This document shows, one piece after another, positions 21,547-34,784 of a DNA stretch of 39,161 nt (positions are counted from its first letter, which is position 1; every line of letters begins with the position of its first letter). The translations under genes were made by a program, and so were the position numbers. The DNA comes from a virus (taxonomy: Duplodnaviria; Heunggongvirae; Uroviricota; Caudoviricetes): IMG/VR virus record IMGVR_UViG_2706794670_000014; one strand, 5' to 3'. The notes beneath the pieces were generated by a model. That model was not told where the DNA came from. It saw only the letters and a program-made list of their open reading frames with translations, and searched no databases.

Positions 21547-21667
21547 ATTGCCTCCGCATAAAGGATGAATATAAAATAAACAGGCGGTCAGTGTACGCTT
21601 AACTGGTAAAGTCGGTGCCTGCCTCCGGGTGGATCATGTATGCGGGTTCGACCCCCGCCACTGACCG

Positions 21668-28545: not shown

Positions 28546-29046
28546 TCAGACTTTCGGCAAATCGTAACGACATAACCATTCATCCGCCGAACGGCGGGCC
28601 TCAAGACCGGGGAGTTTTACCCCCTTTGAATAAATCCAGCGGATATACTGCTTACAGGACGCGGGCATCTGCCCGGCATTGATAAGGCGCAGGAGCGTGG
28701 AGTTGCGAAAGTTCGTTTCACCGGCCCAGAAAATCCAGGAGGCCAGCGCCACCGTCTGACCACGGGTAAGCGGCACCTGAACATGACGATCGATAGCCGC
28801 AAAGGCCCATTTCATGTCCTTTTCCAGCAGCTCCAGACACTCTTCATCAGTTTTTGTCATCCCCGGTTTCACATCCGGGCCGGTATGGCCGTAACAGATG
28901 GTGGGGGTGCCGGTGGGATCAATGTACGTGGTGTTTTCTTTCCCTTCCCAGTAGCCGGTGTAGTGCGTGGCAATGGTGAACGTCCCGGCTCCGGCCAGAA
29001 CAAGGGCAATCAGCTTTTTACGCAGGGGTGCGGGGAGTTTTGGCAT
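28546..29046 (-). CDS. SAR endolysin (lysozyme with an N-terminal signal-arrest-release domain)
   Basis: N-terminal hydrophobic LIALVLAGAGTFTIA followed by a lysozyme-like catalytic region (YIDPTGTPTICYGHT). Confidence 0.8.
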   Translation of the reverse strand: MPKLPAPLRKKLIALVLAGAGTFTIATHYTGYWEGKENTTYIDPTGTPTICYGHTGPDVKPGMTKTDEECLELLEKDMKWAFAAIDRHVQVPLTRGQTVALASWIFWAGETNFRNSTLLRLINAGQMPASCKQYIRWIYSKGVKLPGLEARRSADEWLCRYDLPKV

Positions 29047-29527
29047 TGTTACGCTGTCTCATGGTGTTCTCTGAGTCAGCGTAACCGTGAGGAAAAGGGG
29101 GCAGGANNNNNNNNNNNNNNNNNNNNNNNNNNNNNNNNNNNNNNNNNNNNNNNNNNNNNNNNNNNNNNNNNNNNNNNNNNNNNNNNNNNNNNNNNNNNNN
29201 NNNNNNNNNNNNNNNNNNNNNNNNNNNNNNNNNNNNNNNNNNNNNNNNNNNNNNNNNNNNNNNNNNNNNNNNNNNNNNNNNNNNNNNNNNNNNNNNNNNN
29301 NNNNNNNNNNNNNNNNNNNNNNNNNNNNNNNNNNNNNNNNNNNNNNNNNNNNNNNNAGCAGGTTCAATCCCCTGACGGTGCAGTTCAGCACTGATCACAT
29401 CAACCAGGTCCCGCAGCGTGCCGGGCCAGTTCTTTTTCAGCTCATCATCAGGAATATCATCCAGACGGTCAATCAGCGCGTGCAGCTGTTCGCTGTCACC
29501 AAACATGCTCATCTGTGTTTCAGCCAT
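29018..29527 (-). CDS. Mor/C-family transcription activator (N-terminus visible, remainder masked; true stop unresolved)
   Basis: The N-terminal 57 aa resemble the Mor N-terminal dimerisation region. N-run 29107-29356 covers the rest, so the ORF-track end is not reliable. Confidence 0.5.
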   Translation of the reverse strand: MAETQMSMFGDSEQLHALIDRLDDIPDDELKKNWPGTLRDLVDVISAELHRQGIEPAXXXXXXXXXXXXXXXXXXXXXXXXXXXXXXXXXXXXXXXXXXXXXXXXXXXXXXXXXXXXXXXXXXXXXXXXXXXXXXXXXXXXLPPFPHGYADSENTMRQRNNAKTPRTPA

Positions 29528-29597
29528 ACCCGCCTCCGGTCATCATTACACAGGGCAAGTTTAAAATAAAAATCCCGCGCTGTGGCGGGATTTGGGG

Positions 29598-30689: not shown

Positions 30690-30833
30690 TTATTCATCCT
30701 CACAATTTATACATGCAGTGTCGTCGCCCATATCGCAGTGGTTACATTTTATCTCACCACAATGTGGGCACTCTTTCAGATACTCCGGGTCCTCATTTCC
30801 ACAGGTGGGACATTCAACAATTTGCTCATCCAT
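30690..30833 (-). CDS. 47-aa double zinc-ribbon protein with eight cysteines (absent from the ORF track because it is under 60 aa)
   Basis: Translation MDEQIVECPTCGNEDPEYLKECPHCGEIKCNHCDMGDDTACINCEDE has four CxxC pairs. Its start overlaps the stop of the upstream 110-aa gene. Confidence 0.45.
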   Translation of the reverse strand: MDEQIVECPTCGNEDPEYLKECPHCGEIKCNHCDMGDDTACINCEDE

Positions 30834-31158
30834 TATGTATCCCCTGTAATTCCGGCAAGGCCGAAAGATGGCACCAGTGCGTCACCTGTCCGTCCTCATC
30901 TTCAAGGCAGGCTCCGGTTTCTTCATCAATAAAAAAGCCTTCATACCCCATATGGCCGATGCGCAGTTCCTGTTGGTCACCATACTGAACAATCAGCACG
31001 ACAGCCTCCATATCAGGCGGAAATGCGTCATCCAGTGAATGCCAGGGATAACCGCGCAAATCCCCGAAATAAACGCCGGTCAGCGTTCCGCCACAGAGCG
31101 GCATTCCGGCGGCACACACAAGAGGTTCATCTGATTCAACAAATAAGGTCGTTATCAT
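30826..31158 (-). CDS. Hypothetical 110-aa acidic protein
   Basis: ATG at 31158 overlaps the stop of the upstream gene (ATGA). Confidence 0.45.
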   Translation of the reverse strand: MITTLFVESDEPLVCAAGMPLCGGTLTGVYFGDLRGYPWHSLDDAFPPDMEAVVLIVQYGDQQELRIGHMGYEGFFIDEETGACLEDEDGQVTHWCHLSALPELQGIHNG

Positions 31159-31706
31159 GGCGTTAACTCCCGTAATACAGCGTCCTCGGCAGTCCGGCGA
31201 CGGTAATAAACTGCGTGAGCAGAATGTTCAGATATTCCAAACTTTTCGCCAATTTCCCGGAATGACAGACGGCGTGGGTAATCGGAATCACGCAGCTCAC
31301 GTATAAGACGTACATCATCATCAGATATGCGCGTGCCGGGGCGTAACTCTCCGCACTTTGTTAATCCAGCACCAATCATTCCTGCCCGACATCTGACAGA
31401 ATCTTTATTACGTCCGAGATATTCTCCCATTTGCTGGCAGGTCATTGTTCTGGCATTTTTTCGAATAAACTTATCTTCATCAGGTGTAAATCTTGGGTGT
31501 TTATATTTCAGTAACTCCGGGTATGAACTGCGCAATACACCAGTCCGGTTATATACAGCCCAGACAGTTCTTTTTATTCTGGCAGCAATATCCTTAACCG
31601 GGGTGGATGAATAAAGCGCAATCAGCAGCGCATCTTCTTCAGGTGTCCACGGACGGACATGAGCGGGGGCGCGACCTTTTAGTCCCATGGGTTGTAATTT
31701 CATCAT
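31155..31706 (-). CDS. DNA-binding protein with three tandem HTH-like repeats; the C-terminal repeat resembles the Mor/C-family HTH
   Basis: Repeats RPWTPEEDALLIALY..., PRFTPDEDKFIRKNA..., TRISDDDVRLIRELR...LSFREIGEKFGISEHSAHAVYYRRR. Confidence 0.5.
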   Translation of the reverse strand: MMKLQPMGLKGRAPAHVRPWTPEEDALLIALYSSTPVKDIAARIKRTVWAVYNRTGVLRSSYPELLKYKHPRFTPDEDKFIRKNARTMTCQQMGEYLGRNKDSVRCRAGMIGAGLTKCGELRPGTRISDDDVRLIRELRDSDYPRRLSFREIGEKFGISEHSAHAVYYRRRTAEDAVLRELTP

Positions 31707-31709
31707 GCA

Positions 31710-32225
31710 TCACCCCCTGACTCGCTTTTCAGCAGCATAAAACTCATCAGACAGTATTTCGGTCATTTTCTGTTTTGCGGGTTTTACGCCGCACTGAAGG
31801 TAAATCACATCGTCAACGCAGAACCACTTCACAGGGCCAAACAGGATTGCCGAGAAATCAATACCCAACCAGAACAACAGCGCATCGGTTCTGGCATACG
31901 TGACGGGCGAATATTCACGCCACAGACTGTTCAGTTCATCAGAGGCAACACGCAGGGTTTTAGGGATACGTGATGTGCGCGGTGTGCAGCTCCAGCCATT
32001 CGACGCAGTCGGTTTTCGCCATAAGTCGCGATGAAAAGGATATTTGTCCTCCGTAAAACGCAGTCCCTTAAAGTAAAATCCACTGATACCGGATACAAAT
32101 ACCGACCGGCACGCAACATTCAGCACGGCCTCAAGGCGTTTTGCCTCATCCTTAACTTTCTGGCAGTCCTGCTGGTATTTTTGCCACGCAGCCAGCGCGG
32201 AAGGGTTTGATGTTTTAAAGAACAT
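31710..32225 (-). CDS. Hypothetical early protein (171 aa)
   Basis: ORF in the early operon. No motif recognised. Confidence 0.4.
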   Translation of the reverse strand: MFFKTSNPSALAAWQKYQQDCQKVKDEAKRLEAVLNVACRSVFVSGISGFYFKGLRFTEDKYPFHRDLWRKPTASNGWSCTPRTSRIPKTLRVASDELNSLWREYSPVTYARTDALLFWLGIDFSAILFGPVKWFCVDDVIYLQCGVKPAKQKMTEILSDEFYAAEKRVRG

Positions 32226-32758
32226 TACGCCACCTCCGCAGATATCCCGGCAGGCGCTGCTGTCCGGTCAACAATCAGGTAGCGCAGAACATGTTCAGTG
32301 ATATTCCAGCCGCTTAAACCGCAGATAATGACGCCCAGGCGTATGTCGATATACGCCATCACAAACTGGGGCACGCCTTCTTTCATGGCCTGCTCATCAA
32401 CTTCAGCCACCACATAAACGGTTTCACAGGTCAGAACGCCCTGAGCAAATTCCCACGCCATCGACGGAATATCATGCCCCTCAATCCATGGCAGGGATTT
32501 TCTGAAGCCGCACCACTGAACATCATCAGCCGCAGATTCCTGGCTGCATTTGCGACGAACCGGCTGCACCGGGCGGGGACGCGGAATATCATAAAAACCG
32601 TTACATTCCGTCAGCACGCCTGCATCAACCGCATCACGCAGAAAATAAACCATGGAGGATGGCGGCATATTCATTTTTTCAGCCAGTACACCGCAGGTCA
32701 GGCGGCCATAAATACACAGCCAGTTTTTAACCCCTTCAAGCACTTTTGCATCAATCAT
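32225..32758 (-). CDS. Hypothetical early protein (177 aa)
   Basis: ORF in the early operon. No motif recognised. Confidence 0.4.
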   Translation of the reverse strand: MIDAKVLEGVKNWLCIYGRLTCGVLAEKMNMPPSSMVYFLRDAVDAGVLTECNGFYDIPRPRPVQPVRRKCSQESAADDVQWCGFRKSLPWIEGHDIPSMAWEFAQGVLTCETVYVVAEVDEQAMKEGVPQFVMAYIDIRLGVIICGLSGWNITEHVLRYLIVDRTAAPAGISAEVA

Positions 32759-32903: not shown

Positions 32904-33434
32904 TTATTTATTCAGTCCGGCGTCCTGTTCAAAAGGCTCGACATAAAAACTTTCAGCGCCTTTATTCACCTTGATACCGGCAATGCCTTTCACAGCATCC
33001 GGCTCCGCCAGGACGGCTTCCTTGTTCACTTCCTCTTTCGTGCGGATGAAACGCTCAAGCCCCATACGGCGCAGCATTTCAATCACACCTTCCACATCAC
33101 GGCTGACGCTGCATGATGGCGTTCCCAGCCGCCATGACACCGTTCCGGTGGTCAGATTGGCTGTTTTGGTTTTGCCGCCGTTCGTCAGCTCATCACGGTT
33201 GGTTTTGCACCAGTCCTGAATCCCTTTAAAAAGCACTTTGATTTGCTTTTTAAGATTTTCAATCTGCGGCGTATAACGGGCGGTGATTTCTGCCACTTCG
33301 TCATTCATCGCCGTTTCCAGGCGCAGCGCCTCTCGCTGAATATCTCCCAGGGTGCGGATATCACGGCTGACTTCTTCCCGGGTCTGCGGTGCCGCCTCGG
33401 CTGCGGCCTTTAATTTTGTAACGCGTTTAGCCAT
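32904..33434 (-). CDS. gam: Gam-like host-nuclease inhibitor (Ku-like DNA end-binding protein)
   Basis: Strong resemblance to Mu Gam along its length, including ...NRDELTNGGKTKTANLTTGTVSWR...RFIRTKEEVNKEA... Confidence 0.8.
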   Translation of the reverse strand: MAKRVTKLKAAAEAAPQTREEVSRDIRTLGDIQREALRLETAMNDEVAEITARYTPQIENLKKQIKVLFKGIQDWCKTNRDELTNGGKTKTANLTTGTVSWRLGTPSCSVSRDVEGVIEMLRRMGLERFIRTKEEVNKEAVLAEPDAVKGIAGIKVNKGAESFYVEPFEQDAGLNK

Positions 33435-34562: not shown

Positions 34563-34784
34563 TTAGCTGACTTGTTTCGCACCAACAGAACGGCATATTC
34601 CGCTGTAAACTTCTGTCGCACCTTCGCGATCAAGTCCGGCAGATATCACCATTCGTGTGCGGTCATTAAATTCAAAAAGTAAATCGCCACATTCTTTATT
34701 TTCGGCCAGTGAAATCACCTTCACGTTATCGAAATTAACCAGGTAAAAGCGTCCGTAAATATCAGGAATATTAAATACCGCCAT
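34563..34784 (-). CDS. Kil-like small early protein, assigned by position directly after B
   Basis: 73 aa from the ATG at 34784, which follows the B stop after two nt. Size and position match Mu kil; the sequence identity is not verified. Confidence 0.35.
   Translation of the reverse strand: MAVFNIPDIYGRFYLVNFDNVKVISLAENKECGDLLFEFNDRTRMVISAGLDREGATEVYSGICRSVGAKQVS

Follow-up and report, generated by a model that had tools for sequence, protein, structure and literature searches.

The 183-aa product of an early gene in a Mu-like (Sp18-type) E. coli prophage is, as judged from profile comparisons, a temperate-phage member of the T5 D5 / Mu gp9 family (PHROG 323). We read it, with moderate confidence, as an early-operon protein built of three helix-turn-helix (HTH) units that would serve as an accessory regulator and not as an activator of the Mor/C type. 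The gene (here the SANT gene) lies in a stretch of 39,161 nucleotides, all of which was analyzed and which is called the window below. Its annotation as a SANT/Myb-like protein and its clustering in PHROG 323 with T5 D5 and Mu gp9 were already known, and it is an ordinary annotated gene for a DNA-binding protein, not for a new kind of late activator. In this work, we add explicit evidence against likeness to Mor/C, a collinear three-unit relation to T5 D5 and a two-unit relation to Mu gp9, the occurrence of the family in both Mu-like and P2-like early operons, the core status of the gene in its prophage lineage, and an allelic variation concentrated in the recognition helices.

The initial annotation had placed a gene for 183 amino acids at this locus, and the gene is real: a Shine-Dalgarno-like run precedes its ATG and it fits tightly between its neighbors (Table 1). 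The TGA stop codon of the upstream gene (31710-31712) lies 3 nt before the ATG, a spacing that suggests translational coupling, and the stop codon of the SANT gene overlaps the start of the downstream gene (ATGA); both arrangements indicate that the gene is part of a tightly packed operon. The product is 100% identical to the RefSeq protein WP_000977059.1, named "SANT/Myb-like DNA-binding domain-containing protein", and the DNA of the ORF is 100% identical to the gene in E. coli strain 600029. In earlier annotations, the protein was called "AsnC family protein" or "DNA-binding protein".

Table 1. Features of the SANT gene, its product and its surroundings, in positions of the window
Feature	Position	Strand	Details
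Single Mor/C-family activator gene	29105..29527	-	partly masked in the window; 140 aa in the unmasked copy
Intrinsic-terminator-like hairpin	29570-29593	-	AAATCCCGC-cacagc-GCGGGATTT, then TTATTTT; L001 7416-7439
Four-cysteine zinc-ribbon ORF	30690-30833	-	47 aa; 88% identical over 41 aa to Mu gp13; PHROG 5584
orf110, downstream overlapping gene	30826..31158	-	PHROG 6925
SANT/Myb-like ORF, stop included	31155..31706	-	183 aa, pI 9.9; T5 D5 / Mu gp9 family, three Myb/SANT-like HTH units
C-terminal helix and tail, residues 171-183	31158..31196	-	TAxDAxxRELLP; conserved
Repeat 3 (R3), residues 125-170	31197..31334	-	ISDDDVRLIRELRD...LSFREIGEKFGISEHSAHAVYYRR; divergent, sigma-70 region 4 / AsnC-type HTH-like
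Repeat 2 (R2), residues 71-115	31362..31496	-	FTPDEDKFIRKN...GRNKDSVRCRAGMIG; GcrA/Myb-like
Repeat 1 (R1), residues 18-62	31521..31655	-	WTPEEDALL...; most Myb-like of the three units
N-terminal peptide, residues 1-17	31656..31706	-	consensus LxPMGxPGKCPAH; conserved
Upstream gene, Mu gp12 homologue	31710..32225	-	55% identity
Shine-Dalgarno-like run GGGGG	31713..31717	-	6-10 nt upstream of the SANT ORF ATG; read from sequence
Mu gp11 homologue	32225..32758		68% identity; early-region context
gam	32904..33434		early-region context

The genomic context was read from two unmasked identical copies of the prophage (L001 and L069), the unmasked prophage being 42 kb long. On the coding strand, the early order is the divergent c repressor gene, a ner-like gene, the transposase genes A and B, five small ORFs, gam, the gp11 and gp12 homologues, the SANT gene, orf110, the gp13 and gp14 homologues, one antisense ORF, gp16/GemA and one Mor-family gene, followed by the lysozyme gene and the late genes, with com/mom last. 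Judging by sequence similarity, the gp12 and gp11 homologues and gam define a Mu-type early-region context, and synteny with Mu would place the SANT gene in the semi-essential early region, where, compared with Mu, it forms together with orf110 an insertion between gp12 and gp13. We considered orf110 as an obligate partner and ruled it out, as it is missing at several loci that keep the SANT gene and at the P2-like loci. RefSeq leaves the small zinc-ribbon ORF homologous to Mu gp13 unannotated in the identical prophage. The RefSeq annotation gives a "tRNA-OTHER" between the F-like and G-like head-morphogenesis genes, at about 21563-21642 of the window (L069 18674-18753), but a search of the whole window with ARAGORN detected no tRNA. 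The prophage of strain 600029 splits sgrR, and the two halves remain as pseudogene fragments on either side (L069 143-1216 and 39852-40481); these fragments flank the identical prophage and lie beyond the window or at its edge, and such an interruption is expected for Mu-type random transposition.

Three tandem HTH-type repeats had been proposed for the protein, a proposal that holds at the level of profiles only. Single-sequence Smith-Waterman comparisons between the repeats gave z = 3.2, 0.0 and 2.5, barely above shuffled controls. With 15 close homologues, hhalign related R1 to R2 at 98% and R2 to R3 at 32%, and with an alignment of 34 diverse homologues the values were 98.9% for R1 and R2 (E 2e-17), 91.7% for R2 and R3 (E 8e-7) and 89.4% for R1 and R3 (E 2e-6), all three pairs aligning in register. 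The AlphaFold2 (AF2) model, with a mean pLDDT of 84, comprises three three-helix bundles and a final helix: the helices of R1 span residues 22-31, 37-43 and 48-59, those of R2 residues 75-84, 90-97 and 101-110, and those of R3 residues 129-140, 149-156 and 160-169, with the C-terminal helix at 173-181, while residues 1-16/17 are predicted to be disordered (pLDDT <50). The initial annotation had described each repeat as ending in an HTH-like segment; the HTH itself is confirmed, but each unit is a complete three-helix bundle in the model and does not merely end in one. A DNA-binding fold, whose absence would have refuted the initial annotation, is predicted by the model and the profiles alike, in the form of Myb/SANT/GcrA-like HTH units.

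The best named match of the protein is the PHROG 323 profile "transcriptional regulator, D5-like" (E 5.3e-53, 181.6 bits), which spans residues 2-182 on profile positions 80-256; the same profile matches T5 D5 at 1.2e-71, Mu gp9 at 5.2e-29 and the P2-like homologue at 2.8e-33. Against the family alignment, T5 D5 aligned collinearly over 164 columns covering all three units (hhalign 97.2%, E 3.6e-11), with residues 17-183 of the query paired with residues 71-252 of T5 D5, and Mu gp9/E8 aligned with R2 and R3 (98.3%, E 2.4e-14). In a tblastn search of the prophage with Mu gp9, the SANT gene was the sole match (E 4.6e-4). Pfam Myb matches fell below the gathering thresholds (PF00249, Myb_DNA-binding, 19.7 vs 24.4 bits, E 9.5e-4; PF13921, 16.5 vs 22.9 bits), as did HTH_AsnC-type, HTH_10 and Sigma70_r4; several close homologues (P0005, P0017-P0025) carry precomputed PF00249/PF13921 matches. 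The family profile matches c-Myb at E 2.8e-8, so that a Myb/SANT three-helix fold occurs together with profile similarity to solved Myb repeats. The fold is also that of the GcrA-type DNA-binding domain (cf. PDB 5yiu), and the protein had no match to PF07750 (GcrA) at E<=10.

A profile search of the full library returned 12,501 proteins at E<=0.001, many of which hold 4-9 units of the R1/R2 type; such arrays pass the Pfam Myb threshold, relatives with 5-9 copies scoring 140 bits. About twenty of the 50%-identity cluster representatives among 150 listed have the three-unit architecture of ~180 aa. One protein of 807 aa (P0029) carries nine near-identical Myb-like repeats behind a helicase, and T5.108 (L068 9546-12332), a helicase annotated as "replication origin binding", combines SANT/Myb and DEAD-helicase domains. 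NCBIfam offered nothing useful for the SANT protein or its neighbors, a scan of genome contigs run with one alignment yielded 332 pattern matches and 0 confirmed ones, and a literature search returned nothing relevant on WP_000977059.1, on Myb-like proteins of Mu-like phages or on Mu gp9 and the semi-essential region. The spread of the gene was mapped within E. coli, Salmonella and IMG/VR. Weak matches to an HNH-endonuclease PHROG and to mycobacteriophages prompted us to consider a degenerate remnant of a homing endonuclease. We rejected this candidate because the 183-aa architecture is conserved, present at full length in the 273 copies described below, and maintained by purifying selection.

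Among 5,426 complete E. coli genomes, a sensitive blastn search found the full-length SANT gene in 232, at 273 places. The flanking gp11/gp12 homologues occur in 232 genomes at 274 places and the gp16-Mor segment in 231 genomes at 270 places; the SANT gene is core to the prophage lineage, with 273 of about 274 copies. In 202 of 233 records, the SANT gene is only 77-80% identical, whereas identity in the flanks is never below 90%; the gene is thus far more divergent than its neighbors. Two allele classes were distinguished, A (WP_000977059.1) and B (WP_000973023.1). The window was compared with L028 and L070. Sliding identity between the haplotype of the window and an allele-B locus revealed two sharply bounded islands of divergence in a backbone of ~95% identity, namely the SANT gene (66-80%) and the Mor-family gene (74-81%), and against an O157:H7 prophage there is, in addition, a complete replacement of the c/ner immunity region. 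From c to lys, the early-region loci that diverge most are therefore those for predicted DNA-binding regulators. Within the SANT protein, identity between alleles A and B in helix 3 is 58%, 50% and 30% for R1, R2 and R3, as compared with 100%, 100% and 83% in helix 1 and 100% in helix 2 of R3. Likewise, entropy across the family peaks in the third helices (1.5-2.0 bits) and reaches its minimum in helices 1-2 of R3 (0.24-0.5 bits). Variable third helices on a conserved scaffold are the usual signature of changed DNA specificity. The alleles differ by a high dS of 0.66 overall (0.66-1.5) at a dN/dS of about 0.26 overall, and by this estimate the SANT gene is under purifying selection as a whole.

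The third repeat had been likened to the HTH of Mor/C-family activators, a resemblance that amounts to generic HTH similarity. Comparison of R3 with an alignment of Mor/C proteins (the prophage Mor, its homologues, Mu Mor and Mu C) gave 7% over 15 columns in hhalign; the 183-aa protein has no Pfam match to PF08765 (Mor) at E<=10, BLASTP of this protein against the Mor-family protein of the prophage returned nothing (E>=4), and a PDB search with the R3 profile recovered no Mor chain at E<=10. Mor/C proteins (PF08765) are, like the SANT protein, small phage HTH proteins encoded in the matching part of a Mu-type genome, and both share the generic pattern hydrophobic-S/T-x-x-E-I ... Y-x-x-R. However, Mor/C proteins consist of an N-terminal dimerisation domain and one C-terminal HTH, whereas the SANT protein has three tandem HTH units and no dimerisation domain; the architecture in the AF2 model is three tandem three-helix units plus a terminal helix and not that of Mor/C.

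That only one Mor/C-like gene precedes the lysis genes was borne out, since Mu Mor and Mu C both match that locus in the unmasked prophage, and the masked block, inspected for both activators, encodes a single protein of 140 aa. This protein matches PF08765 at E 6.7e-31 and is 40% identical to Mu C (E 4e-36) vs 28% to Mu Mor (E 1e-15); its gene is referred to below as the C-like gene. The one exception to the single locus is a 73-aa ORF just downstream of B (34563-34784, minus strand; L001 12409-12630; PHROG 3375), which resembles residues 31-69 of Mu Mor (38% identity over 39 aa); the similarity is weak (pairwise E 1e-5), and these residues lie in the N-terminal, dimerisation part of Mor, not in its HTH. 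A single Mor/C gene is found in many Mu-like phages. The stretch ahead of the lysozyme gene (about 29034-29104; L069 11212-11282) resembles the Mu promoter Plys, the common elements being TCAGAGAA(T/C) and TCCGCA..CTGCC, and this similarity suggests that the single Mor-family protein may act there as C does in Mu. With a Plys-like region and a C-like activator at hand, a two-stage cascade suffices and a second activator is unneeded: it looks as if the early operon would supply the C-like activator and this activator would switch on the late promoters.

The proposal that the SANT protein takes over one of the two roles of Mor and C was unsupported by these comparisons, given the lack of Mor/C similarity and the presence of gp9 in Mu along with both Mor and C. 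The alternative that had been raised with it, an added regulator, gains support from membership in PHROG 323, whose label is transcription regulation. Full-length homologues (37-47% identity) are found in the early operons of nine P2-like phages, where their genes are placed between the C repressor/cox and the replication gene A. P2-like phages use Ogr-type late control. Together, the coexistence of gp9 with both Mor and C in Mu and the P2-like homologues speak against the family as a replacement for Mor/C.

Between the stop codon of gp16/GemA and the C-like gene, ~43 nt before the ATG of the latter, lies a strong terminator-like hairpin, which is identical in the O157:H7 haplotype, where the following 40 nt differ. 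By its sequence, the layout recalls the arrangement of the mor stop codon, t9.2 and Pm of Mu. A -10-like element past the terminator (TGTGTAATGAT) is not conserved in the O157 haplotype, which leaves a Pm-like promoter unsupported. The dyad before the C-like gene, CCCGC-N6-GCGGG, was also tried as a shared operator and rejected: it has 6 matches vs 2.7 expected, a number reached in 5 of 100 shuffles, and none of the matches lies at an obvious late promoter. As the -10 element is not conserved and the dyad is not repeated, read-through of the terminator is the simpler reading, possibly with auto-activation by the dimeric C-like protein.

We consider the SANT protein a probable sequence-specific regulator of the early stage, to judge from its family and its pattern of variation. 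A single molecule would bind double-stranded DNA, with the third helices of its units inserted into successive major grooves, so that the three recognition helices would read an asymmetric site of roughly 15-20 bp, and the binding would probably be both sequence-specific and allele-specific. The N-terminal LxPMGxPGKCPAH peptide may serve as a minor-groove arm or interaction motif, lying in the groove or contacting a partner. By analogy with T5 D5, the protein might, after induction, serve as an accessory or modulatory regulator of transcription or replication in the phage (or the host), and it would not activate promoters in the manner of Mor/C. The calculated basic pI of 9.9 would fit a DNA-binding role. 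No candidate DNA target of the protein was found. T5 D5 binds dsDNA cooperatively and largely without sequence specificity, a behavior hard to reconcile with allele-specific recognition helices, and variable third helices could also reflect weak constraint or evasion of a host sensor.

A different view, which we hold to be very unlikely, makes the SANT protein a substitute for Mor, that is, a middle-stage regulator that activates, or allows read-through to, the C-like gene or some late promoters. It draws on the single Mor/C gene of the prophage, closer to C than to Mor, on the perfectly conserved hairpin shortly before that gene, on the requirement of the remote homologue T5 D5 for late transcription, and on the SANT and Mor genes being the two sharp islands in an otherwise ~95% identical early region. 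Their alleles also co-occur, in 9/9 IMG/VR loci for allele A and 12/15 for allele B, and the numbers of E. coli records per allele are similar for both genes (roughly 30 vs 202). However, linkage is the simpler explanation of this co-occurrence, because the genes are 1.6 kb apart and the sample is clonal. Three loci break the pattern. The absence of specific Mor/C similarity, the coexistence of gp9, Mor and C in Mu, the full-length homologues in P2-like early operons and the Plys-like region, for which two stages are enough, all speak against substitution, and so does the dyad, which does not recur at late promoters and fits a plain terminator or the site of a dimeric protein, but not the site of a monomer whose three HTH units differ. 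A bolder version of the idea, in our estimate a long shot, is an allele-specific regulator that co-evolves with the C-like activator and supplies the missing middle stage, for example through control over passage of the terminator or co-activation of late promoters; if true, Myb-type repeats would have taken the place of Mor in one branch of the Mu-like phages. Its weaker variant takes the hypervariable recognition helices as a means to evade host sensors that detect D5-like proteins, type IX retrons being one example.

Such an arms race is central to the reading of the SANT gene as a host-directed or conflict gene, whose product would bind host or competitor DNA (for shutoff, superinfection exclusion or anti-defence) and whose helices would reflect, for example, escape from type IX retrons. 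In a 2026 preprint (PMC13405049), the HTH of T5 D5 is shown to bind retron msdDNA and to set off a type IX retron, retron-Kva2, escape mutations map to D5, and D5 alone is mildly toxic; moreover, the SANT gene forms a sharp island of divergence in a conserved backbone and moves alone between two unrelated types of phage, Mu-like and P2-like, with no conserved partners. Nevertheless, we regard this reading as unlikely: PADLOC gives no match for the SANT gene or its neighbors, the alleles are old and under purifying selection, which points to module exchange and not to recent positive selection, and the divergence is shared with the phage's own regulators (c/ner and Mor), which points to a specificity internal to the phage. 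Quite improbable, too, is a non-specific architectural protein that coats or bends dsDNA and aids replicative transposition or packaging, not transcription. The SANT protein is basic and homologous to T5 D5, on which DNA replication depends as well, and its gene is located among Mu early genes for DNA handling (gam, gp16/GemA); these points would agree with such a function, but the variation is concentrated in the recognition helices while the scaffold is conserved, and Myb, GcrA and Tc3 domains are sequence-specific binders.

The SANT gene is a core early gene of Sp18-type prophages, which are common in Shiga-toxigenic E. coli, and it is tied by homology to T5 D5, a classical protein of obscure mechanism, and to Mu gp9. 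If the protein is a sequence-specific regulator, the natural alleles A and B, differing mostly in the recognition helices, offer a ready-made route to its targets. A possible gain would be a clearer picture of D5-like proteins in temperate phages, including their detection by retron-type defences.

Among known systems, T5 D5 (T5.118, YP_006946.1) is related to the SANT protein by a common PHROG, by being the product of an early phage gene and by a DNA-binding character, which is predicted for the SANT protein. It differs in its length of 255 aa, with an N-terminal extension of ~70 aa and without the LxPMGxPGKCPAH peptide, in belonging to a virulent phage, and in an identity of only ~24% to the prophage protein, a remoteness at which function may not transfer. 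The annotation of T5 D5 describes a DNA-binding protein on which both DNA replication and late transcription depend and which takes part in early shutoff (McCorquodale 1979, cited in PMC12630848). Mu gp9/E8 (NP_050613.1, 99 aa) is homologous to R2 and R3 and is likewise encoded in a Mu-type semi-essential early region, but only two units are present in it, both conserved ends (the N-terminal peptide and the C-terminal helix) are missing, and its gene lies upstream of gam, whereas the SANT gene lies between the gp12 and gp13 homologues. GcrA carries a C-terminal sigma-70-binding domain, whereas the prophage protein ends with a 13-residue tail past its HTH units. The regularly spaced tryptophans of eukaryotic Myb/SANT proteins (c-Myb R1R2R3, SNAPc4, the CoREST SANT domains) are only partly retained in the prophage protein, and its third repeat is closer to sigma-70 region 4 and AsnC-type HTHs than to GcrA or Myb/SANT.
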